A DNA stretch of 64,000 bases from Candidatus Marinacidobacterales bacterium (GTDB lineage Bacteria > Acidobacteriota > Vicinamibacteria > Marinacidobacterales > SMYC01). The DNA is taken from the NCBI GenBank assembly GCA_965237955.1, contig OZ250169.1, positions 7,008,001 to 7,072,000 on the forward strand, given 5' to 3'. The position numbers were made by a program, and so were the translations under genes. The notes below the pieces were generated by a model, which was given only the letters and a program-made list of their open reading frames with translations, was not told where the DNA came from and did no database searches. Within the stretch, counting starts at the first letter, position 1. Every line of letters starts with the position of its first letter. Positions 1 through 12,072 of the stretch are shown here, one piece after another.

Positions 1-329
1 TTCAAGCCGTCACCGATCGCGGTGGCGTCGGGCTGGCTCGCAAACCCGTGCTCGTGCATCGCCCGGTACAACCAATCGCCGCTTCTGTCACCGGTGAACA
101 TGCGACCCGTTCGATTGGCCCCATGAGCGGCGGGAGCAAGGCCGACGATGAGCAGGCGCGCCCGTGGATCGCCGAAGGACGGAACCGCTTTCGCCCAGTA
201 ATCCTCGTCAGCGAAGCGTTTTGTTTTCGTCACCGCGATGCGCTCGCGATGCGCAACCAAGCGAGGGCAGATGCGGCACTGAGTGACTTCGTTCGAGATT
301 AGCGGTATTCGGTTTTCAGCATTCAGCAT
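1..329 (-). CDS. udgB: Uracil-DNA glycosylase, family 5 (UdgB-type), 5' part; runs off the window edge
   Basis: Not in the ORF track; my translation gives CRICPRL (Fe-S) ... [25 protein letters not shown], the family 5 UDG motif. ATG at 329. Confidence 0.9.
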
Positions 330-490
330 TCAGTTCACTTAGCGCCTTGCCGGCATCGACGTCGTACAAATCAACTCCAACGTGCTGGTAAAGAGGCTAG
401 CCTCGTTACCGGCGATACCTTATAGGCTCGGCACCACTTTGGCGAACGGCACAACGCGAATTGGACTGGATGCTGAATGCTGGATGCTGA
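309..490. repeat. Dispersed structured element, copy 1, with (CAGCATT)n inverted arms and a conserved core
   Basis: Arm 310-337 pairs with 462-489 on the + strand. Core is homologous to 9163-9328 (383-420 vs 9228-9265 is 32/38 identical; 447-466 vs 9293-9312 is 19/20). Confidence 0.8.
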
Positions 491-1908
491 TCTCCGACTA
501 CTCCCCCCCCCGCGGCGTCCAGAACCGCTCTATAACGCTCGAAGTCGCCGCGTGCGATGTGGGGCCTCAGAAAAGTAATGTCAAAGTTTTGGGACGCGAC
601 ACGCACCGTCAACGCGCTGGCGCTGACGCGGGTCAATCGCTCGATTTCAGCGACGTGCCAGTGCCACGTGCCGTGTCGCGACGTCTCGAAAGCGATCCCG
701 TCCGCCCGCAGTAACAAGTCTCCGGTGCAGTGGCCGACGAGATGCTCGTGACGCGCGACGAAGCGCATGGGAAGGGACTCTTGAAACCGAGCGCGCTCGA
801 GCCCCTCGGACAACTCCGCCGAGCCCGGGTAATCGGGATGGTGTGCGGTGATAGCGTTCAACAACGCTTCGCCGTCGTCGACCCTGCCTTCTTCGCGCGC
901 ACGCTCGGCGTCGGCAAACAGTGCGCTCATGGATTGTGCTGGTTGGGTTGCGCTCTGTTCCGGCGCCGGTTGCGGCCAAAACCAAGCGGCCAGTGCGACG
1001 CCAGTCATGAGCGCCGCGGCCATCCATCGACGAAGCCGGCTCGGGCGGGTTGACGGAATCGGCTGCGTGGGTTCCAGATCGACGAGCGTTCCTCGCTCGA
1101 GAGCGTCGAGGTGGTCGATCAAAGAATGCGCCGAGCGATACCGATCTTCCGGCTTTTTCTCGAGCAGTCGAGCGCACACGACGTCCCAGAGGGGCGAAAC
1201 ACCGGGACGCGCGACCGACGGCGGTATCGGCTCATCGTGCAGTACGCGATAGATCGTCCGGCTCACCGTCGCCGCATCGAACGGGCGCTCTCCAGTCAGT
1301 AGCTGATAAAGAATCACGCCGAGCGAGAACAAGTCACTCCGTCCGTCGACGCGTTCGCCCGAGAAGATCTCCGGCGACATGTAGCTCGGTGTTCCGATGA
1401 ACTCTCCCGTTGCGGTCAGGTCGAGAGCTTCGACCTTGGCGATGCCGAAGTCGACGAGCTTGATCATGGGACCGGGCTGGTAGAGAACGTTCGCGGGTTT
1501 GATGTCGCGGTGTACGATGCCTTCACCGTGAGCGTAGTCCAGAGCGCTCGCGAGCTGGCGAATGATGAGCCGCACTTCGTTCTCTTCGGGAAGACCGCGT
1601 TCGATTAGCTGCGATAGTCCAATCCCGGGAAAGTACTCCATGGCGATGAACGGCTCATCACCCGTGAAGTCGGTGTCATAGACGCTGACGATGTGCGGGT
1701 GTAGCAGATTGCCGGCAATTTTCGCCTCGCGGCGGAAACGCTCGAGAAACGTTTGCCGTTGGGCGTCGTCGAGAGAGAAGCCGAGTCGCACGACCTTGAT
1801 AGCTAATATCCGATCGAGCTCGGGATCGCGCGCCTTGTAAACGACACCCATATTGCCTCGCCCGATCTCTTCGAGCAGCTCGTAGCGGGAAAGGTAATTT
1901 TCGGGCAA
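406..1908 (-). CDS. Membrane-anchored Ser/Thr protein kinase with a TPR-like and a C-terminal domain
   Basis: GRGNMG, AIK, HRDIKPAN, DFG and SPE motifs; one TM segment. The last ~35 aa read through the repeat element after a G9 run, so the true stop may be near 498. Confidence 0.88.
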   Translation of the reverse strand: MPENYLSRYELLEEIGRGNMGVVYKARDPELDRILAIKVVRLGFSLDDAQRQTFLERFRREAKIAGNLLHPHIVSVYDTDFTGDEPFIAMEYFPGIGLSQLIERGLPEENEVRLIIRQLASALDYAHGEGIVHRDIKPANVLYQPGPMIKLVDFGIAKVEALDLTATGEFIGTPSYMSPEIFSGERVDGRSDLFSLGVILYQLLTGERPFDAATVSRTIYRVLHDEPIPPSVARPGVSPLWDVVCARLLEKKPEDRYRSAHSLIDHLDALERGTLVDLEPTQPIPSTRPSRLRRWMAAALMTGVALAAWFWPQPAPEQSATQPAQSMSALFADAERAREEGRVDDGEALLNAITAHHPDYPGSAELSEGLERARFQESLPMRFVARHEHLVGHCTGDLLLRADGIAFETSRHGTWHWHVAEIERLTRVSASALTVRVASQNFDITFLRPHIARGDFERYRAVLDAAGGGVVGDQHPAFSIQSNSRCAVRQSGAEPIRYRR

Positions 1909-2042
1909 TGTGCGTGGCTCGGCACGGCGTCCTGGTTGTGGACACCTGAAAACGCTGGGGGGTTCGACGTGTCGAATTTGTGTTCTTCAGTCATGTTAGC
2001 ACCTGGAGCCCGATTTCCAACGGGGCTGCCGCTCTCTGAGGG

Positions 2043-2084
2043 TGTGTGGTTTTCCCCACAACAAAGCGTGGGGAAATTCCTACG
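2043..2084. promoter_or_regulatory. Pair of 18-bp dyad sites between the divergent kinase genes
   Basis: TGTGTGGTTTTCCCCACA (2043-2060) and CGTGGGGAAATTCCTACG (2067-2084); both are imperfect palindromes and resemble each other in inverted orientation. Confidence 0.4.
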
Positions 2085-2209
2085 CCATTGAATCGACCCG
2101 CGAACACTTGCGTTTTGCGAACGGACAAATTAGCCTGAAGGTATCTCCCGTCACGATCGAAATGTACTCACCCTCGACGTGTGCATGGTCGCGATCGTGA
2201 GGAGGCTGG

Positions 2210-3931
2210 ATGGAGCTCGTTGGACACCAAGTAGGCGCATACAGAATCTTGTCTCTCCTCGGTCGTGGTGGTACGGCCGAGGTCTATAAAGCGTTTCACC
2301 CCGCGTTGAAACGTGAGGTCGCCGTCAAGGTGATCCTCCAGGAAGTGAGCCACGACCACGACTGGGTGCGGCGCTTCCGCCAAGAGGCTGAGCTTCTCGG
2401 TCGGCTCGACCACCCGCATATTCTCCCGGTCTACGACGCGGGCGAGCACGAGGGAAGACCTTACCTCGTGATGAAGTACATGGCCGACGGCCGAACGCTC
2501 CGCACGCAGCTTTCGGGGCAACCGTGGCCGCTGAACCGAGCGGTCAAAGTCGTCGGTCAAGTCGCCGAGGCTCTCGACGCAGCGCACCAAGCGGGCGTCG
2601 TCCACCGCGACATCAAACCCTCGAACATTCTGGTCACGCCAGACCTCAGATGTCTGGTGTTCGACTTCGGTATCGCCAAGCCGTTCCGACGGGACGAGAA
2701 CACCACCGGCTCCGGCCTCATCGTCGGAACACCCGAGTTCATGTCGCCCGAACAGTGCAAGGGCGACAAGATCGACCACCGCTCCGACATCTACTCCCTC
2801 GGCGTCATGACATACCAGATGCTCACCGGCCACGTACCGTTCTCCGCGGAGACAGCGGTCGGCATTCTCATGAAGCATCTGACCGAGCCGCTTCCGATCC
2901 CACCGAAAGGGGTCGCGCTCCCGCCGGCGGTCAACGGTGTGTTGCGGAAGTCGATGGCGCGTGACGCAAGGGACCGCTTCGATGCCGCAGGCGAGTTTGG
3001 GGTCGCGTTTCATCAATCGGCTGATCAGCGCGCGACGGTCACGCTGCACGCTGGAGAGATCCGACGGGCGGCAACGCCGACGTTGAAACTCCCTCAGTGG
3101 GTGCGCAAGTGGAAGCGCCAGGAGATCCGCCTCGGTCTCGCCGGCGCGGTGCTACTGACAATGGCGGGAGCGATCTATGCACTTTGGCCGAGCTCGTCAA
3201 CACCACAACAAGGGACCGCGATCGCCGGGCCGCCGGCACCGCCGCTCGTTACGGAGGGGGCGGAGGGAGCAACGACCGATGCCAACGCCGACGCTCCCGA
3301 GTCTCAGCCCGCTCCGCTACCGCTTCCCCCTTCGGCGCCGGTTCGCCGCCCGGGACATATCGATACGAACCCATCGATATCGCTCGGCAGCCTCCATATC
3401 GAGTCGAATGCGCCGGCGAGCGTGCTGTTGGATGGACACCCGATCGGAGCGGCGCCCGGCGTCTTCCAATCGGTCGAGCCCGGTGAGCGAAGCGTTATCC
3501 TCGACGCCGGCCAAGGCCGCGTCCACGAGCAAACCGTGGTTGTCACCGCCGGCTCCACGCACCACCTTCGTTTCGATTTCGAGACGACGCCGGTGGACGT
3601 CACCGGTGCGATGGCCCGACCGCATCAAAGCGAAAGCATCGTGTCGAGCGCTACGAGCACGACGTCACGAAGATTCGACCGACCGCCGCGCATTCGCGAG
3701 TGGACAGGCTGGCTGACGGATGCGGATTGCGGAGCGACGGGGGGCAAGCAAGGCGCCCTTCACCTACGGTGCGCCGAACGTTGTATCCGATCGGGACAGC
3801 AGCCGATGCTGTACTCGCGCGGCAAGCTCTATCGCATCGATGGATTCGAGAACGTGACCATCGTTCGCGGCGAGCCGCTTACGGTTCGAGGCTGGCTCGA
3901 GCTCGACACGATCCACGTCAGCGAGCCATAA
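2210..3931 (+). CDS. Ser/Thr protein kinase: TM segment, PEGA domain and C-terminal Cys/His beta-domain
   Basis: GRGGTA, HRDIKPSN, DFG, SPEQ; TM at ~aa 307-326; PEGA-like GSLHIESNAPASVLLDG; GGAGG RBS. Confidence 0.93.
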   Translation: MELVGHQVGAYRILSLLGRGGTAEVYKAFHPALKREVAVKVILQEVSHDHDWVRRFRQEAELLGRLDHPHILPVYDAGEHEGRPYLVMKYMADGRTLRTQLSGQPWPLNRAVKVVGQVAEALDAAHQAGVVHRDIKPSNILVTPDLRCLVFDFGIAKPFRRDENTTGSGLIVGTPEFMSPEQCKGDKIDHRSDIYSLGVMTYQMLTGHVPFSAETAVGILMKHLTEPLPIPPKGVALPPAVNGVLRKSMARDARDRFDAAGEFGVAFHQSADQRATVTLHAGEIRRAATPTLKLPQWVRKWKRQEIRLGLAGAVLLTMAGAIYALWPSSSTPQQGTAIAGPPAPPLVTEGAEGATTDANADAPESQPAPLPLPPSAPVRRPGHIDTNPSISLGSLHIESNAPASVLLDGHPIGAAPGVFQSVEPGERSVILDAGQGRVHEQTVVVTAGSTHHLRFDFETTPVDVTGAMARPHQSESIVSSATSTTSRRFDRPPRIREWTGWLTDADCGATGGKQGALHLRCAERCIRSGQQPMLYSRGKLYRIDGFENVTIVRGEPLTVRGWLELDTIHVSEP

Positions 3932-3990
3932 AGTTAAAGTTAAAGCGGGCACGGCTCTTTGCCCCCACGCCCTTAACCGTGCCCACTTTT
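3929..3990. terminator. Probable bidirectional intrinsic terminator
   Basis: Stem GGGCACGG...CCGTGCCC (3947-3984), followed by ACTTTT on + and by (CTTTAA)x3 on -. Confidence 0.55.
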
Positions 3991-4167
3991 CTCGAGAACG
4001 CTACCGGAGGAAGAACGCCTGCCACAGGACGGGAATTCTGCGGCTCGACGTTCTCCCTCCGGTCCCCGGATGCCGGCCTGGTCCGAACACTCACCCCCCA
4101 CACGAGCGTTACGTGTCCATTCCCAGCCGGCTTCGCGTCGCTCCAACCAAAGTAGCCCCACAATGCC
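3935..4167 (-). ncRNA. Candidate sigma54-dependent structured small RNA
   Basis: Lies directly downstream of a consensus -24/-12 promoter. Two long hairpins (4072-4131 and 4003-4063) whose mismatches are mostly G.U on the minus strand; ends at a terminator; no credible ORF or RBS. Confidence 0.55.
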
Positions 4168-4176
4168 CCTCAGGTA

Positions 4177-4193
4177 TTGCAAGGCGAATGCCA
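4177..4193 (-). promoter_or_regulatory. Sigma54 (-24/-12) promoter
   Basis: TGGCATTCGCCTTGCAA, with exact GG-N10-GC spacing. Confidence 0.75.
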
Positions 4194-4267
4194 GGAGCAC
4201 GCTCGCGAGCCGATCGCGCTAACCACTACGGCATAACGGGTTACGCTTTTGGCGTGATCAGCGGGAG

Positions 4268-4328
4268 TGTAGCGGCGGTGGGAACACTCGATCGTTTACG
4301 CCGCCCCGGTGTAGCGCCGGTCGCTACA
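4268..4328. promoter_or_regulatory. Tandem enhancer (UAS) sites for a sigma54 activator
   Basis: TGTAGCG-gcggt-GGGAACA (4268-4286) and perfect TGTAGCG-ccggt-CGCTACA (4310-4328), 42 bp apart and 75-135 bp upstream of the -24 box. Confidence 0.65.
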
Positions 4329-4352
4329 CTTAATCTTGCTCAGCGAGGGTCG

Positions 4353-6159
4353 CTACACGTCGCTTTCGCCCGGATCGCGCCCCTTCCGCGAGCGCAGGTT
4401 CTTGTGAATCAAGGTGCGATGCATCCCGGACTCTTTCGCGGCGTGGCTGATGTTACCGTCCGTTTGCGACAGCACGTAGTCCACGAAGCGGTCCTCGAGC
4501 TCCTGGGCATAGATCCCAGAGAGCTCCTGAAGCTCGTTGCGGCGGCGTTTCAGCTGGGCGTAGTCCCGCGGGAGGTCGGCCATGAGCCGCTTGAAGGGGT
4601 CTTTGGCAATCTTCAAAATATTCTTCCGCGTGCCCGAAACCTCTTGGGGCAGATCGTCGAGGGTGATCGATCGGCCGCGATTCTCGACGACGAGCCGTTG
4701 CACCACGTTCTCGAGCTGGCGGATGTTGCCGCGCCACTCGTGATTTCGTAGACAGTCATAAACCTCAGGCTCGATCTGAGGTCGTTCCTTGAGGCCAATC
4801 TCGATCGTGAAAACGTTCACAAAATGGTCGACGAGCAACGGAATGTCTTCCTTCCGCTCGCGCAACGCCGGGAGCTCGATCGGGTACACCCACAGGCGAT
4901 AGTACAAATCCTCGCGAAATTCCCCTTGTTGCACCAGCTCGCGAAGGTCTCGATTCGTCGCCGCCACCACGCGCGTGTCCACGCTGATCGTGCGCCTGCC
5001 ACCGAGGCGCTCGAACGTGCGCTCTTGCAGGAACCTGAGAAACTTCGCCTGCAGCTTTTTCGATAGCTCGCCGATCTCGTCGAGAAAGAGCGTCCCCGAA
5101 TCGGCCATTTCACAACGGCCCATGCGGTTGACCGCTCCGGTGAACGCGCCCGGCTCGGTACCGAAGAGCTCCGCCTCCAGCAAATCCTCGGGGAGGGCGT
5201 CGCAGTTCACCACGACGAGAGGTTTGTTCGCGCGATCGCTCGCTTTGTGAATCGCGCGCGCGACGAGCTCTTTACCGGTGCCGCTCTCGCCGTCGATGAG
5301 CACGGTCGCTTGTGTGGGCCCTACCTGCTCGATGCGCTCGATGATCTCGAGCATCCGCGGTGACGAGCCGACGAGCCCGTCGAAATACGTTTTCCCCTTC
5401 ATCTCGCGGTACAGACGCTTGCGGGCTTCCACCTCCTCGTCGAGGCGGAGGGTCGCGTTCAAAAAGACCGCGGTAAGTCGTCCGAGAGCTCGCAGTAGCT
5501 CGAGATCTTTCTCACCGAACGCGCCGCTGGCCCGCTGGTTCTCGAAATAGATGCAGCCCGCCAGATAGTCTTTGAAGCGCAACGGGATGGCGAGAACGGA
5601 GCGGAGCTTGAGCTGTTGAGCGCTCTCCTCGTTCGCGAGGAGCTCGTCGACTTGAGCGTCGTCGACGAGCACGGAGTCGTTTCCGGCAGCGATCTCTCGG
5701 ATGATGGTGCGGCTCACCCGGGGGTCGTGGTCAATGCTTTGGTGCCGGTCGTTGCGCGCGGCCATGACCTCTGCCTCGGACTCGGCGCTGCGAAAAAGCA
5801 AAACCGCGCCCGAGCCGGCTCCGACTTCGGCAAGCAGGTCGTCGAGCACTCGTTCCGAAGAAACGGTGTGCGGAGCGCTCCTCGAAAAAATGCATGGCGG
5901 TCCGAGTCGCGAGATCGACGAAGGGCGAGTGCAACACCCCGGTGCCCTTCGTGTAGAGCTCGTTCTCGAGCTCGGTGATGGCGGCGTCCAACGACTGGAG
6001 AATTTCGGGGGCGACCGACGGTCGTGGTTGGTGAGCGGCCGACAGATCGTGAACGCGCTGGTGCAGCCCCTTCAGTCCGGTCAGGACTTTCTGATACGAA
6101 GCGCCTTCTTCGGAAATAGGATCTTTACGTCGCGACACGTCGGCTCCATAAACAGGCAC
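4353..6159 (-). CDS. GAF-domain sigma54-dependent transcriptional activator (AAA+ and Fis-type HTH); +1 frameshift near 5856
   Basis: GESGTGKE, GAFTGA, LFLDEIG, WRGNIRQL, C-terminal HTH. ORFs 5731-6159 and 4353-5849 join (..HRFF-ERVLDDLL..) if one G is removed. Confidence 0.88.
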
Positions 6160-6212
6160 CCCGGTTGCGAGAATCTGCGGGGGAGCCCGCAGCCCGCAGC
6201 CTTTACTCTAAC

Positions 6213-6458
6213 TCAAGACGACGCCGGGGGGGAAGAAGAAGCCACCTCCCCGTTCCTATGGCTCTTTGGGGCGGGGTGGAGGATGTTTCGTAGGACGAAT
6301 CGCTGGCTTTCTACAAACACATTCAAACATAGCGGGCATCGGTCGAGATGACTCAGGATCTTCGAACGGGTGCCGCCGTCACAAAGCCCATCGATGAGCT
6401 GAGCGAGCGCCTCGGCGTCCGGGCAAACCCCGCGCGCCAACCGCCGTTGGATCATCAT
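6213..6458 (-). CDS. Small zinc-finger anti-sigma (ZAS / zf-HC2-like) protein
   Basis: CPDAEALAQLIDG...HLDRCPLC (HxxxCxxC); directly downstream of the ECF sigma; GGGAGG RBS. Confidence 0.75.
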   Translation of the reverse strand: MMIQRRLARGVCPDAEALAQLIDGLCDGGTRSKILSHLDRCPLCLNVFVESQRFVLRNILHPAPKSHRNGEVASSSPPASS

Positions 6459-6474
6459 GGCTCATCCTCCCGTT

Positions 6475-7056
6475 TTATCCAGGCCGTTTATAGCAGGCAA
6501 TTCTGGGCAACTTCTGCCCTGCCTGCCCTGCCCGGGTTAGACGGCTAGCGACGTAGTCTTCACGCCCGGGGACGCCGACGTTTTCGAGAGCATCCTCCTC
6601 GACGCGCTTGGCACGTTGGCGGCGTGGGAGTTGGATCGCGAGATCCCAGAGAGCCTCCCCGCTGAGAGCTGTATCTGTCCGGGTGAGAAGCATTTCTCGG
6701 GCCTCGTGGAAGTCGATACCATCGCGGTAGAGGAGCGTTTCCAGCTCGACCGCAGTCGCCCCGAGCCTCGTGGCGGTCGTGGACGGACGCCATTTACCCC
6801 ACTTCTGGGTACGGTAGTCGAGGAAAAGTCGCTGCATGACGACGGTGAGGTACGTCCGGAAGCTACTGTCGCCACGGTATTTCCGAAGCCGGGCGTAGTC
6901 GTTCTCGACGAGTTTCAGCATGGCGTACGACGTAAAGTCCTCGCGTTCGTCCGTCTCCAGGCGATTGCGACGGGATAAAAAGCGAATGAGCTCCTCGACC
7001 AGCGAATAATGGGCCTCGAAGAGCTTGCGGCCTTGGGCTTTCGTGCTGTTCGACAT
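6475..7056 (-). CDS. ECF-type sigma-70 factor, apparently lacking region 4 (possible pseudogene)
   Basis: Region 2-like EDFTSYAMLKL...YRGDSSFRTYLTVVMQRLFLDYR; GGAGG RBS. After ..EDYV the sequence is low-complexity with no region 4 HTH. Confidence 0.7.
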   Translation of the reverse strand: MSNSTKAQGRKLFEAHYSLVEELIRFLSRRNRLETDEREDFTSYAMLKLVENDYARLRKYRGDSSFRTYLTVVMQRLFLDYRTQKWGKWRPSTTATRLGATAVELETLLYRDGIDFHEAREMLLTRTDTALSGEALWDLAIQLPRRQRAKRVEEDALENVGVPGREDYVASRLTRAGQAGQKLPRIACYKRPG

Positions 7057-7243
7057 ATCGTTCCTCCCACTCGACTCTCACAAGAAAGATTCGAGCGCTT
7101 CTATTGGAGTCAACGTCGAGGATCGAAAACCCGAACAGGTTTTTTTTGGGATTTTTTTCGGCAGGAAGGCAGGAGTTCGTCGCGGTTTCCTGTACTAATA
7201 ACTCTCGAAAGCTTCTTTTCTGGAAAAGAAAACTCACCGGTAT

Positions 7244-7282
7244 CTCTGCGAAACCTCTGCGTCCTCTGCGCCTCTGCGGTGA
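7244..7282. repeat. Short tandem repeat (CTCTGCG x4), REP-like intergenic element
   Basis: CTCTGCG at 7244, 7255, 7264 and 7272, just after the bshA stop. Confidence 0.6.
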
Positions 7283-7302
7283 TTTCTTTCTTTTGAAGCC
7301 GG

Positions 7303-8415
7303 CTAGAGCAATCGTTCGTAGAGAGCTTCGTATTGGGGAATGATCTTGTGGCTGTCGAACTCGGATTGAGCGCGCGCGCGGCCGGCATCGGCGAAGCGGC
7401 CGTGTTTCTCGGCGTCCGAGAGGAGTCCGATGGCGGCGTCAGCCATGGCCCGGACCTCACCCACCGGGACCAAATAGCCGGACTCACCATCGGTCACGAC
7501 TTCGGGAAGCCCGCCCACCCGCGTTCCTATTACAGGGACGCGGCAGCTCATCGCCTCGAGCGCAACGAGACCGAAGCTCTCCTGCTCACTAGGAAGAAGC
7601 AGCAGATCGGCGCAGCTCAATAGGTCCTCGAGGTAGTCCTGCTCGCCGAGGAAATGTACGTGCTCGGCCAGACCGAGCTCTTTGGCGAGCTGCCGCACGA
7701 AGAGTCTTTCAGGCCCCTCGCCGACGAGCAGCAACTTCGCCGGGATCTCGCGTCGAACGAGATCGAACACGCGAACGACGTCGGTCACGCGTTTCACCGG
7801 ACGGAAGTTGGACGCGTGGATGAGGATTTTCTCGCCCGCGGGCGCCCAGTGCTCGGCGCCGTAGTCCGAGGTTGTTCGTCCTCGCGACGTATCGATGAAG
7901 TTGTAGATGACGTCCACTTCGCGCTCGAGCGAGAACTCATCGATCGTGCGTTGTCGCAGAAACTGAGACACCGCCGTCACTGCGTCGGAAACTTCGATCG
8001 CGAATTTGGTGACGCGGTGGAACGATTCGTCGGCGCCGACGAGGGTAATGTCGGTGCCGTGCAAGGTCGTCACGATCTTCGGGGCGCCTTCGCCAATGAT
8101 TTCTTTGGCGAGGAACGCGCTGACGGCATGCGGCACCGCGTAGTGCGCATGGATCACGTCGAGGCTCTGCTCCGCGGCCACTTCGGCGAGCTTCGTCGCC
8201 AGGCCGAGCGTATACGGCGGGTACTTGAACAAAGGGTACGTGGCGACTTCGACCTCGTGGACGCGTACCCGCGGATTGAACTCTCGGAGCCGAAACGGCA
8301 CCGAGTAGCTCACGATATGAGCGATATGCCCGCGCTCCGCGAGGCCGAGCGCGAGCTCGGACGCGATGACCCCGCTGCCGCCATGTGAGGGGTAGCACAC
8401 GATGGCGATGTGCAT
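7303..8415 (-). CDS. bshA: N-acetyl-alpha-D-glucosaminyl L-malate synthase (bacillithiol biosynthesis)
   Basis: [51 protein letters not shown]. Confidence 0.93.
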
Positions 8416-9140
8416 CAGGTAATCCTCGTGAACAAGCGATCGAAGAACTGAATCGGGTCGTCCACTTTCATGGCCTCGCGTAAGTAGAATGCCTCGCCGA
8501 AATCGGTGTCGATCAACGCTCCGTGATAGCGATCGATGGCTTCCACGCGATTCAGAAAACAGGGCTGGCTGATGTAGGTCTCGGGACCCGCTTTGTCTTC
8601 GCTATGAAGTTGGGACGCATACGCACGCACCGCGCGCATCTTGACTTCGTAGAACGGCGTGATATCGATGACGAACGAGGGCGCTATCTTGTGCGGCACG
8701 AGATAGTAGAGCACGCAGTTCGGCCGGTGTGGCGCTCCGCCGGCTTGGTATTTGCTGAGACCGGCGAGATAAGCCGCTTCTGCGACCAAGGTGCCCGACG
8801 CGGTGTGGTCCGGATGGTTGTTCTCCGGATAGTTCGTGAACACGAGCTTGGGTTTGTGCTCGCGAATGGATTCGACGACGGCTCGTTTCGTTGCTGCGCT
8901 CACGACGAGACCGCCGTCGCCCAGATCCAGCGTCTTGCGGACGGACGCGTGCAGAAGCTCCGCCGCCTCGGCCGCCTCACGCGACCGATCTTCACGCGTT
9001 CCCCGCGTCCCCATTTCCCCCGCGGTGAGATCGACGATACCGGTGCGATACCCGAGCGAGTGCAGCTTGAGAAGCGTGCCCCCCATGGTGAGCTCGACAT
9101 CGTCCGGGTGCGGACCAAAAGCAAGCACGTCGACATGCAT
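8415..9140 (-). CDS. bshB1: Bacillithiol biosynthesis deacetylase (PIG-L family)
   Basis: PHPDDVEL, DLTAGEMGTRGT, HPDH; coupled to bshA. Confidence 0.9.
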   Translation of the reverse strand: MHVDVLAFGPHPDDVELTMGGTLLKLHSLGYRTGIVDLTAGEMGTRGTREDRSREAAEAAELLHASVRKTLDLGDGGLVVSAATKRAVVESIREHKPKLVFTNYPENNHPDHTASGTLVAEAAYLAGLSKYQAGGAPHRPNCVLYYLVPHKIAPSFVIDITPFYEVKMRAVRAYASQLHSEDKAGPETYISQPCFLNRVEAIDRYHGALIDTDFGEAFYLREAMKVDDPIQFFDRLFTRIT

Positions 9141-9162
9141 TGGTTGGATTCTACAGCATTGT

Positions 9163-9328
9163 TGGTATTCGGCATTCGGTCCAAATCAAGCCCGGCCGGT
9201 CATCGACATTGTGCAGGACAACGAGCCTGCCGGTAAACAGGCCAGACTCGTTACAGGCGAGACCTCAAAAGATTGGCACCAGGGTGCCTAACCGGCACAA
9301 CGTGAATTGGACCGAATGCCGGATGCCG
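9163..9328. repeat. Dispersed structured element, copy 2, with (CGGCATT)n inverted arms
   Basis: 9163-9184 pairs with 9307-9328 over 22 bp (three G.T, no mismatch, + strand); core homologous to 309-490. Confidence 0.8.
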
Positions 9329-9330
9329 CC

Positions 9331-10502
9331 TCAGATAACTAATTCCAGGTATATAGCGCCTCTCGTAGGTCGATCCTGATTTCCAAAACCGAGCTCGAAG
9401 GCCAGGCGCACGCGGGGATGGAGCCAGATCTTCAGTCCGGGGAAGAACTCGAAGAAAGATTTGGCGGGATCGGCCGTGCCGGGAGGAGGGCCGCGAACGA
9501 GCTCCGCGCGAGCTGTCACCACGAGCTCGTCGCGGATGGCGAAGTCGAGTTGGGCGAAACCGCCAGAGAAGCTCAGCGCTTCGTTCGTCCCGCCGGGGTT
9601 CGCCGGATTTGCGAACGAGTTCGCGTTCCGGCCGTAGAGAAACGTGCCATAGACGTGGGCTTGCCCGAGGTACACCGATACATCACCACCGAAGCGCAAG
9701 AGGTCATCATCCCAATTCAGAATCTCCTGCTCGATCATTCTTGCGAGCCTGTTGCGGCCCCAGTACACGTACATCCCCGCCCGGCCTTCGCCGAAGCGGC
9801 GCATCAAGCGGCCGAAAACATTCGCGTCGAACTGCCCGCGCTTCCTAGAAGCTCGGTTTGCTCCTCGCTTTCGTTCGCATCCACGACCGAGATCGACCAG
9901 CGGGTCGCGTCATCGATGAAGCCGCCGAGCTCGAGGCCGTCATGATGAACCCCGATGTTGTCCGTCTCGAATCCGGTATTCGCAAAATAGATTTCGTAGC
10001 GGAAGAGCTGCGGTGTCCTCGTTTGCGTGAACGGAAGGTCGAGCTCGATACGCCCGCCTCGGACGTAGATCTCGTCGGGAGCCAGCTCGACTCGCAGGAA
10101 GGCGTTGTCCAACCCGACCCGTGTCGAGTCCTCACTTTCGATGACGTAGTTGTCGTCGATCCAATAGGACACGCGGCTTCCAAGATTGCCGGCGCTCACG
10201 AGTCGGAACAGCCCGCGCGTCTGAGCGTCGCCTTTCTCTTCGAACGTCTGACGCAGCGTGGCGCGCAAGCTCACCGGAACCGATCTCAGCCAGTCCGAGA
10301 CTTCGGTCACGTCGTCGTCGAGACGATAACCCCTCTCTTTGAACTGTTCGCCCAAAACGCTGAGCTGGGGATAACCGTCGTGGCAGAAATGACACGGGAG
10401 CTGGTAGCGCCGGGCGAAGGCAGGAATCGCATCCGCGGCCTCGGGCACGATGACCGAGACGGTCCAGAACAGAAGAAGAAAACGGAACGGGCATTTGAGC
10501 AT
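9331..10502 (-). CDS. Outer-membrane beta-barrel with an N-terminal monoheme cytochrome c motif; frameshift near 9835
   Basis: Signal peptide, then AIPAFARRYQLPCHFCH (CxxCH) and amphipathic beta-strands; ORFs 9804-10502 and 9331-9807 join by a single-base shift. Confidence 0.75.
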
Positions 10503-11132: not shown

Positions 11133-11138
11133 GTCGGC

Positions 11139-11207
11139 GGTCGCTATCCGCTTCCCGCCGTCCGCTATCCGTGGTTGAGCAGACCGGGTAGCGGATTGCG
11201 GAAAGCT
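11139..11207. repeat. Left inverted repeat flanking yjbQ
   Basis: GGTCGCTATCCGCTTCCCGCCGTCCGC...GCAGACCGGGTAGCGG is the reverse complement of 11645-11709 (first 27 nt exact). Confidence 0.85.
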
Positions 11208-11225: not shown

Positions 11226-11639
11226 ATGAAACACCTCCGAAAAACCCTAACCTTCGAAGTTCCCGCGCGCATGGACTTCGTGAATATCACGTCAGACATT
11301 GAAGATGCCGTACGTGAGAGCGGTGTCGCGGAGGGCCTTTGCCTCGTGAACGCGATGCACATTACCGCGTCGGTGTTCATCAACGATGACGAGCCCGGCC
11401 TTCATGAAGACTACAAGAAGTGGCTCGCACCGTTCGATGCCAGCCCCGAGCGCTATCACCACAACCGCACCGGCGAAGACAACGGCGATGCGCACCACAA
11501 ACGCCAGGTGATGGGCCGCGAAATCGTCGTCGCCATCACCGAAGGCAAGCTCGACTTCGGCCCGTGGGAGCAAATCTTCTACGGCGAGTTCGACGGCCGA
11601 AGGGCGAAGCGAGTTTTGGTGAAGATTATTGGGGATTAG
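11226..11639 (+). CDS. yjbQ: YjbQ / UPF0047 family protein
   Basis: [43 protein letters not shown]. Confidence 0.92.
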
Positions 11640-11644
11640 GCGCT

Positions 11645-11709
11645 AAGTTTCGCCGCCCGCTACCCGGTCTGCAAACCGGACGGCGGACGGCGGGAAGCGG
11701 ATAGCGACC
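11645..11709. repeat. Right inverted repeat flanking yjbQ
   Basis: Reverse complement of 11139-11207. Confidence 0.85.
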
Positions 11710-12072
11710 TCAATCGCATTTCGCGAATTGACTTCCACCGAGCCGCTGGCACACTGTCGGGGCACGAGCGGCCTTTCCGCCGTCGAGCAATACCGCATCG
11801 CTCCACCCCTCGGGCACGGGCTGTTCGAGCACGTCGAGGACGCCGAGGTCCACGGCGCCTATTCGCATCGCCTGGTAACGCAGATAAGGGATGAGCTCAT
11901 CGAAATTTCCAGGATGTGCGACCGCGAGAAAGGTCTCGCCTTGTTTCATGTCGAGGCGCTCAATGATCTTCTTCGCCATCGCTTCGTAGTCGAGCTCGAA
12001 CCGAGGTGGCACCGATTGCGCATGCACGGATGCCGTCATCACGACACTCAGAACCCAAACGCCGACTCTCAT
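11710..12072 (-). pseudogene. Truncated secreted protein (aminopeptidase-like N-terminus only)
   Basis: Signal peptide (..SVHAQS), then AMAKKIIERLDMKQGETFL; breaks off after ~105 aa next to the right inverted repeat. Confidence 0.45.

Follow-up and report, generated by a model that had tools for sequence, protein, structure and literature searches.

Tandem repeats with 7-base units are over-represented in many bacteria, and the available text of three reports gives their origin and function as not known (PMC4692102, PMC4679880, PMC2700814). The paired hepta- and octanucleotide sites of Geobacter metallireducens (PMC2700814) and the paired GGGAATC arrays of Xanthomonas (PMC4692102) are, in the accessible text, inverted pairs of 7-mers with variable spacing that lie between genes and near stop codons. 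The TAACTGA repeats of Beggiatoaceae, as far as the consulted part of PMC4679880 goes, are intergenic tandem heptamers with strain-specific patterns, arranged as direct arrays near start codons and almost never paired. REPINs carry inverted conserved ends around a less conserved spacer, form hairpins of ~100 nt, and occur extragenically as lineage-specific variants (PMC3116915, sections consulted). The MITEs Correia/NEMIS, RUP, and YPAL are non-coding, shorter than 200 bp, and bear terminal inverted repeats that give stem-loop RNA; RNase III action has been proposed for the Neisseria repeats NEMIS (PMC2229807, sections consulted). Finally, the ORF-bearing intervening sequences (IVSs) of 23S rRNA (PF05635/S23p) end in a long stem of 28 bp with tandem heptamers in strain-variable number; in the Coxiella IVS, this heptamer-bearing stem is cleaved by RNase III (PMC4990558, sections consulted).

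The window analyzed here—64,000 nucleotides of contig OZ250169.1 from a Candidatus Marinacidobacterales bacterium—holds two copies of a repeat family that shares the pairing, variable spacing, and stop-near intergenic position of the Geobacter and Xanthomonas arrays, the strain-specific heptamer patterns of Beggiatoaceae, the build of REPINs and MITEs, and the long terminal stem (22–29 bp) and strain-variable heptamers of the IVSs. It differs from each of them. Compared with the Geobacter and Xanthomonas arrays, in the text available, its unit is another one, a shared ~101-nt core has been amplified together with the arms, G-quadruplex potential is absent, and sites are shared across genera, which was not found in the examined text of PMC2700814 and PMC4692102. 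Its arrays are paired and stop-tied, unlike those of Beggiatoaceae in the part of that report consulted. In contrast to REPINs, the ends are tandem heptamers and not REP palindromes, no RAYT scores over the cut-off, and placement is strongly tied to stop codons. The MITE hallmarks of TA ends and target-site duplication are missing, the elements are GC-rich, and no matching transposase was found between arm pairs 260–1300 nt apart. Whereas the IVSs are located in rRNA and carry an ORF, the flanks here are protein genes, the elements hold no ORF, and dozens of copies lie behind stop codons. The family answers to the description of a paired intergenic heptamer repeat—a class that is descriptive and without a known mechanism. 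Paired heptamer arrays are hence already in print; new here are the amplified lineage-specific core, the measured stop-flush placement, and the cross-genus sharing of sites with swapped arms and cargo. A literature search, with most subscription journals and supplements outside its scope (that of PMC2700814 may show related families), found no heptamer-armed four-helix-bundle cassette outside rRNA, and the phrase 'tandem inverse repeats' was not found either. We consider it moderately probable that the window copies are sister copies of a dispersed, gene-less, heptamer-armed hairpin repeat, likely a non-autonomous insert behind stop codons.

Copy 1 occupies the space separating a Ser/Thr kinase gene from one for uracil-DNA glycosylase; copy 2 does so for an unnamed gene and a PIG-L/bshB1-like gene. 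All four genes are on the minus strand. Their parts are:

303–489, no strand: copy 1, whole element (fold-back hairpin), from the heptamer census
303–330, plus strand: copy 1 left arm, two degenerate and two intact CAGCATT heptamers
331–468, plus strand: copy 1 interior, 138 nt, bounded by a CAGTTCA-type inner inverted repeat
469–489, plus strand: copy 1 right arm, three RATGCTG heptamers
309–337 with 462–490: copy 1 stem, 29 positions, 5 G.T pairs, 1 mismatch
346–408, no strand: 63-nt stretch absent from contigs of three other runs (X5, X6, X7) that are otherwise ~99% identical
9163–9328, no strand: copy 2, whole element
9163–9176, plus strand: copy 2 left arm (CGGCATT variant)
9177–9314, plus strand: copy 2 interior, 138 nt, putative sister of the copy 1 interior
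9315–9328, plus strand: copy 2 right arm, starting 2 nt past the stop codon of the upstream gene (9331–9333, minus strand)
9163–9184 with 9307–9328: copy 2 stem, 22 bp, 3 G.T pairs

The blocks that the first-pass annotation had described as common to both copies—GCCGG(T)CATCGAC, a 38-nt block, GGCACCA, and a 20-mer—are all found in the window, and so are the stems built from heptamers, with 22 bp in copy 2 and 29 positions in copy 1. By hand reading, the 38-nt block agrees at 32/38 positions (383–420 versus 9228–9265) with 5/6 differences in one codon phase, as had been noted, or at 31/38 if cut at 384/9229 instead; the 20-mer starts at 447 and 9293 and agrees at 19/20. Copy 1 reaches out to 303, beyond its earlier-noted start, via two degenerate heptamers. 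BLASTN aligns the copies with 72.8% identity over 162 nt (E 6e-17) and their interiors alone with 75% over 120 nt (E 2e-13); the local alignment score of 103 compares with at most 36 in 500 shuffles. Two further repeat types lie nearby. Inverted copies of a small hairpin with CCGCTAT/CCGCCGT heptamers (11134–11200 and about 11650–11710) bracket a 138-aa gene (11226–11639), and G006, a relative of another genus, has CGGTATA arms at the junction matching 11134–11200 (L190). The stretch 7237–7290, just past a glycosyltransferase stop codon, is an arm of a repeat type (CTCTGCG...CTCTGCGGT) that presumably flanks GxxExxY genes; the genome holds one PF13366 gene.

Dispersal of the element, proposed from these two copies, was borne out by the genome, with the amendment that it is not a two-copy element and belongs to a genome-wide family of at least 58 loci. 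BLASTN of both window copies against the genome gives 284 pieces, which among the best 200 of 284 fall nearly all on the arms. The census, made with a simple custom gene caller (7462 genes), comprises 58 loci, none inside a called gene: 31 counted as single-armed and 27 two-armed, the latter a lower bound as copy 2, whose left arm begins with a variant base, was itself counted single-armed. The general anatomy is that of tandem CAGCATY/CGGCATH arms around a variable interior of 5–164 nt. Runs of at least three exact heptamer units number 51 in the genome and 0 in the reversed genome, and a 21-nt arm pattern has 45 matches against 0 in the control. Interior lengths cluster near 85, 101–105, 135–138, and 150–164 nt. 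A profile of the ~101-nt core, built from 14 interiors, describes an imperfect palindrome with repeated GCCGGTAA...TTACCGGC units and matches 25 loci—both window copies among them, weakly—and none in the reversed genome. The copy 1 interior is a diverged version of this core plus ~35 nt, a unit with five exact matches in the genome, all within elements.

Among 33 interiors, the window copies match each other best (score 103, where no other interior exceeds 37), and we infer that the 138-nt pair are sisters from one short-range copying event. The pair is exceptional, as nearby copies are not generally more alike (11 near pairs versus 517 far ones, p 0.16), and the loci cluster mildly (25/58 within 20 kb, 14 expected, p 0.01). 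One of the 58 loci, the copy at 6193102–6193285, starts 3 nt past the stop codon of the RNase III gene, which may be chance. A second arm family, CAGCCAT/CGGCCAT, is commoner still, with 186 non-genic arms in the genome; 34 hairpin pairs of it are listed, with ~90-nt interiors of their own.

The two window copies differ by CAG versus CGG in both arms, which had been taken as a compensatory change. Across the family, this is instead an arm variant, concordant between both arms in 26/27 elements, and fits subfamily inheritance or arm-to-arm correction. The ~101-nt core occurs with either variant, and a variant may also be common to whole genomes: G006 has 89 CGGCATA matches genome-wide against 13 in the control. 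The wobbles are G.T on the plus strand with no A.C inside either window stem, as had been described; the antisense bias read from them does not extend to the family, where 11 co-directional elements hold 13 sense versus 9 antisense wobbles (p 0.52).

Strain variants affect arms and interiors alike. Besides the 63-nt stretch missing from copy 1, X7 and X15 lack one heptamer (7 nt) in an arm of another family copy, and a 135-nt copy that spans 187 letters is represented by 153 in one X5 contig; long X5 and X7 contigs run unbroken through copy 2. In the matches listed, strains showed no empty allele at either window copy or at four other copies, though in these matches contigs often break at the arms. 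Elsewhere in the window, 809 nt over the kinase domain of the gene at 2210–3931 (2205–3013) are missing from X5, X6, and X7 contigs.

The core had been called conserved, with either a new ncRNA or a decayed cargo in mind. The strain contigs without 346–408 lack two of the earlier-described conserved blocks. The folding z-scores of the window copies (−5.0 to −7.4 on both strands) suggest a novel family of structured RNAs, non-coding or antisense, whose core is conserved, as does one core orientation that folds as a long irregular stem with 90% of cells paired over 12 cores. The strong folding follows, however, from the terminal inverted repeats, and covariation in the 12 cores does not rise above shuffles: 3/29 pairs show a double change where shuffles give 3.3, and 135/500 shuffles reach the score. 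Interiors ranging from 5 to 164 nt, 63 nt of the copy 1 core lost in near-identical strains, and wobbles without strand bias likewise speak against it. No Rfam family matched either copy within window positions 1–10000 at E up to 10, and 20 other copies gave only two matches to miRNA models, far below the gathering score. We deem an RNA family extremely unlikely. The promoter scan of the copies returned no full sigma-70 site, and one weak terminator-like hairpin inside copy 2 is near chance.

That the core is the decayed remnant of protein-coding cargo would accord with arms of similar kind carrying genes elsewhere and with the 5/6 differences in one phase of one block, a bias with p about 0.05 by hand calculation and chosen after the fact. 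Over 12 cores, however, substitutions spread evenly across the three codon phases (71/68/67), and interior lengths step by ~35 nt. A tblastx search of both cores against the genome gave no coding parent (best other match E 0.065, among the matches listed), and GTDB, metagenome, plasmid, and phage searches gave no longer parent of the core. With six-frame reading and tblastx yielding no parent and a flat phase test, a coding origin was rejected; we rate it as very unlikely indeed. Flat phases, missing covariation, and the 63-nt strain loss together indicate an unconstrained interior.

Among 50 stop-facing arm ends, six of which overlap a called gene, 30 end 0–8 nt past the stop codon (13 at exactly 1 nt) versus 1/35 of the start-facing ends; two nulls put this stop-flush placement at 3.9% and 21% (p 1e-29 and 3e-9). 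The CAGCCAT family is likewise stop-flush (44/85). Six of the 27 two-armed elements lie between divergent genes with arms facing gene starts alone, and a role in a 3′ UTR can hence not apply there. Three features bear on the flanking genes in the window:

327–329, minus strand: sole in-frame ATG of the uracil-DNA glycosylase gene udgB (PF03167), in the copy 1 left arm; use as start predicted
498–500, minus strand: TAG ending the upstream Ser/Thr kinase gene 8 nt before the arm, if the C run 503–511 is one C shorter
9148–9153, minus strand: TAGAAT, resembling a -10 hexamer, 7 nt upstream of where the PIG-L/bshB1-like gene (8415–9140) starts

The arms might be paired DNA sites bound by a nucleoid or regulatory protein, as proposed in Geobacter metallireducens, where the same layout is in print (PMC2700814, text consulted in part). 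In line with this, 8/35 start-facing arms have a -10-like hexamer just downstream, versus 5.6% at random and 4/50 stop-facing arms. The arm ends follow stop codons far more tightly than starts, however, and the arm sequence at one site differs between genomes. Moreover, the -10-like hexamer stands at empty sites as well: in G002, G014, and G001, TAGAAT likewise lies a few bases before the start at the copy 2 junction, so it belongs to the host and not to the element, and may be a promoter hexamer judging by its position. Paired binding sites thus appear very unlikely.

The claim that copy 1 contains the udgB start codon stands, the start itself being predicted. In G014, G010, and G001, the kinase stop codon overlaps the udgB start at the copy 1 junction, and the host DNA to either side of copy 1 keeps the same 10-codon register. 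Copy 1 therefore appears to have inserted within the initial codons of udgB, and the sole in-frame ATG of this gene would now be supplied by the arm. Entry into a pre-existing palindrome, considered for the complementary flanks of copy 1, was rejected: own-pair complementarity is 3.81 versus 3.81 shuffled. With the C-run length of the window, the kinase frame continues into copy 1 up to 406; the run is one C shorter in X3, X6, and X7 and has the window's length in X5. Further single-base indels versus contigs of other runs occur at 9559, 9832, 5858, 4224, 2022, 6985, and 7141, and the split gene at 9331–10502 is one gene of ~400 aa in relatives; several frameshifts of the window may hence be assembly errors.

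Relatives of other genera lack the element at both window junctions, so that the empty sites called for by the first-pass annotation do exist. At the copy 2 junction, compared over 18 genomes, the flanking genes lie 15 nt apart in G002, 20 in G014, and 46 in G001, versus 190 here. The same junction holds heptamer arms with other interiors in G006, G015, and G018 and an unrelated palindrome in G009 and G013. To place the arm loci of G006, 56 loci (55 after removal of one duplicate) were assigned to this genome by the best tblastx match of the nearer flank, which is not reciprocal orthology. Sixteen of the 55 map to gaps with a same-family arm here, against 0.95% of 6863 gaps, and 26/55 to gaps with any heptamer triple, against 3.0% expected. 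At shared sites, arm variant and interior differ wherever compared by eye. In the more distant G008, 7/28 mapped loci (2 unmapped) fall on either family (3.1% expected, p 2e-5) but only 1/28 on the CAGCATY/CGGCATH family.

This sharing of many sites with another genus counts against reading the family as inserts, as it fits old retained insertions as well as mobility. The arms could be old selected sites for processing or stabilizing mRNA 3′ ends, at which the hairpin is kept, arm variant and interior are swapped by recombination, and current mobility is nil. Besides the shared sites and the differently occupied copy 2 junction, two observations lean this way: convergent gene pairs keep merely 2–14 nt of host DNA beside the element, and the long-stem orientation lies on the mRNA strand in 10/14 co-directional cases, which is not significant. 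Against it, the ~101-nt core recurs at many loci that are otherwise unrelated, with identities reaching ~90%, which needs dispersal, and the junctions work without a hairpin in G002, G014, and G001. The CAG-type loci of G006 share 0/8 sites with the CAGCATY/CGGCATH family and 1/8 with either family. The null for shared sites ignores gene conservation, and the bshB1 tree leaves the genera unresolved and cannot separate inheritance from re-insertion, so that the counts are compatible both with old insertions that were retained and with hot spots that were used repeatedly. We consider old selected sites unlikely, though they are the rival to be taken most seriously.

A core model over 55 genomes of the order (73–150 of thousands of candidates scored per genome) matches in this genome and G006 alone, where the same core occurs once with CGG-type arms (E 1e-9). 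Metagenome scans for the element gave 0 and 1 match, and neither a plasmid search with copy 1 nor a phage search with one core gave any. In one metagenome contig (L291:620–750), a full element follows a stop codon at another locus; it combines the same ~101-nt core with CGG-type arms. Two Alphaproteobacteria matches from a GTDB scan with the inner arm motif were taken as chance and set aside.

In other lineages, the arms enclose genes. CAGCATT arms enclose a PF05635 (four-helix-bundle) gene in the relatives G018 and G017, and the family described here is hence likely related to PF05635 cassettes. The single PF05635 gene of this genome lies between CAGCCAT arms, the commonest arm type of the genome. 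Among 19 family genomes, all six with PF05635 over the cut-off have CAGSATY arms, compared with 3/13 of the others (10/13 have none); the Fisher p of 0.003 is overstated, since kin are not independent, and 3/9 genomes with arms have no PF05635 match. Arms of the family enclose a different amplified palindrome in G008 and many interiors in G006. From these sequences, the arms are a container whose cargo differs between lineages. In this genome, no gene lies within a CAGCATY pair, and the core is without recognizable likeness to a PF05635 gene, so that descent from a PF05635 cassette is argued from the arms alone. The PF05635 gene of G006 (L094, G006:C69) is flanked by GTTCCC/GGGAAC hexamer arrays, not heptamers, and this hexamer abuts a CGGCATA arm in L197. 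In G015 (L091, L098–L119), ~32 near-identical full-length PF05635 genes (46 matches; 23 loci compared) stand beside a long transposase-like frame and one heptamer arm, a pairing that can be a route for cassettes to hitch-hike.

As for a mobilizer, the proposed MITE-like cassette stands in being dispersed, non-coding, below 200 bp, terminated by inverted repeats, and matched by empty sites in relatives of other genera, and fails in lacking a target-site duplication: over 27 elements the longest flanking direct repeat is 0–3 nt, the same as with shuffled pairing, with arm ends ragged enough for a 2-nt duplication to escape the test. No transposase lies between CAGCATY-type arm pairs at 260–1300 nt spacing, and the flanks of Y1 transposases (12 of 25 matches) are without arm motifs. 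The RAYT model NF047646 has 0/5 genomes over the cut-off, with a best score here of 54 of 80 bits and none in G006, and the flanks of that 54-bit gene hold no arm motifs either. No RAYT or IS200/IS605 partner was found in these searches.

Returning to the favored reading of a probably non-autonomous insert, the spreading unit in this lineage would be the arms together with the ~101-nt non-coding palindromic core, inserted into the gap right behind stop codons. Template switching can correct one arm by another, and slippage changes the number of repeat units. The arms would gain and lose units by slippage and stay alike because each is copied from its partner or from other family members; the interior would decay freely. 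In the transcript of the upstream gene, the arms would open the 3′ UTR with a stem of 22–29 bp, which would likely stop 3′ exonucleases or serve as an RNase III substrate, as with rRNA intervening sequences and the Neisseria repeats. By this analogy, RNase III cleavage of the stem is a likely candidate role, and an RNase III gene is present in this genome. Such a side effect on mRNA ends may explain why sites stay occupied. A bolder proposal, which we hold to be improbable, is that arm pairs are reusable slots at gene 3′ ends. Placement would be stop-flush and free of duplication, cargo and arms would be swapped with the arms as template, a four-helix-bundle protein would act as an Avd-like RNA chaperone, and RNase III would cut the mRNA stem.

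The two window copies are in themselves unremarkable, save for the arm in which a DNA repair gene has its predicted start codon. The genome is complete, carries the repeat dozens of times in a stop-flush position, and can be compared with strain variants and with empty sites in relatives, which makes it a clean test set. If arm pairs turn out not to be reusable slots, the family would be one more lineage-specific repeat family. If they are, small DNA cassettes would move without target duplication and edit the 3′ ends of mRNAs, and PF05635 proteins would gain a role.
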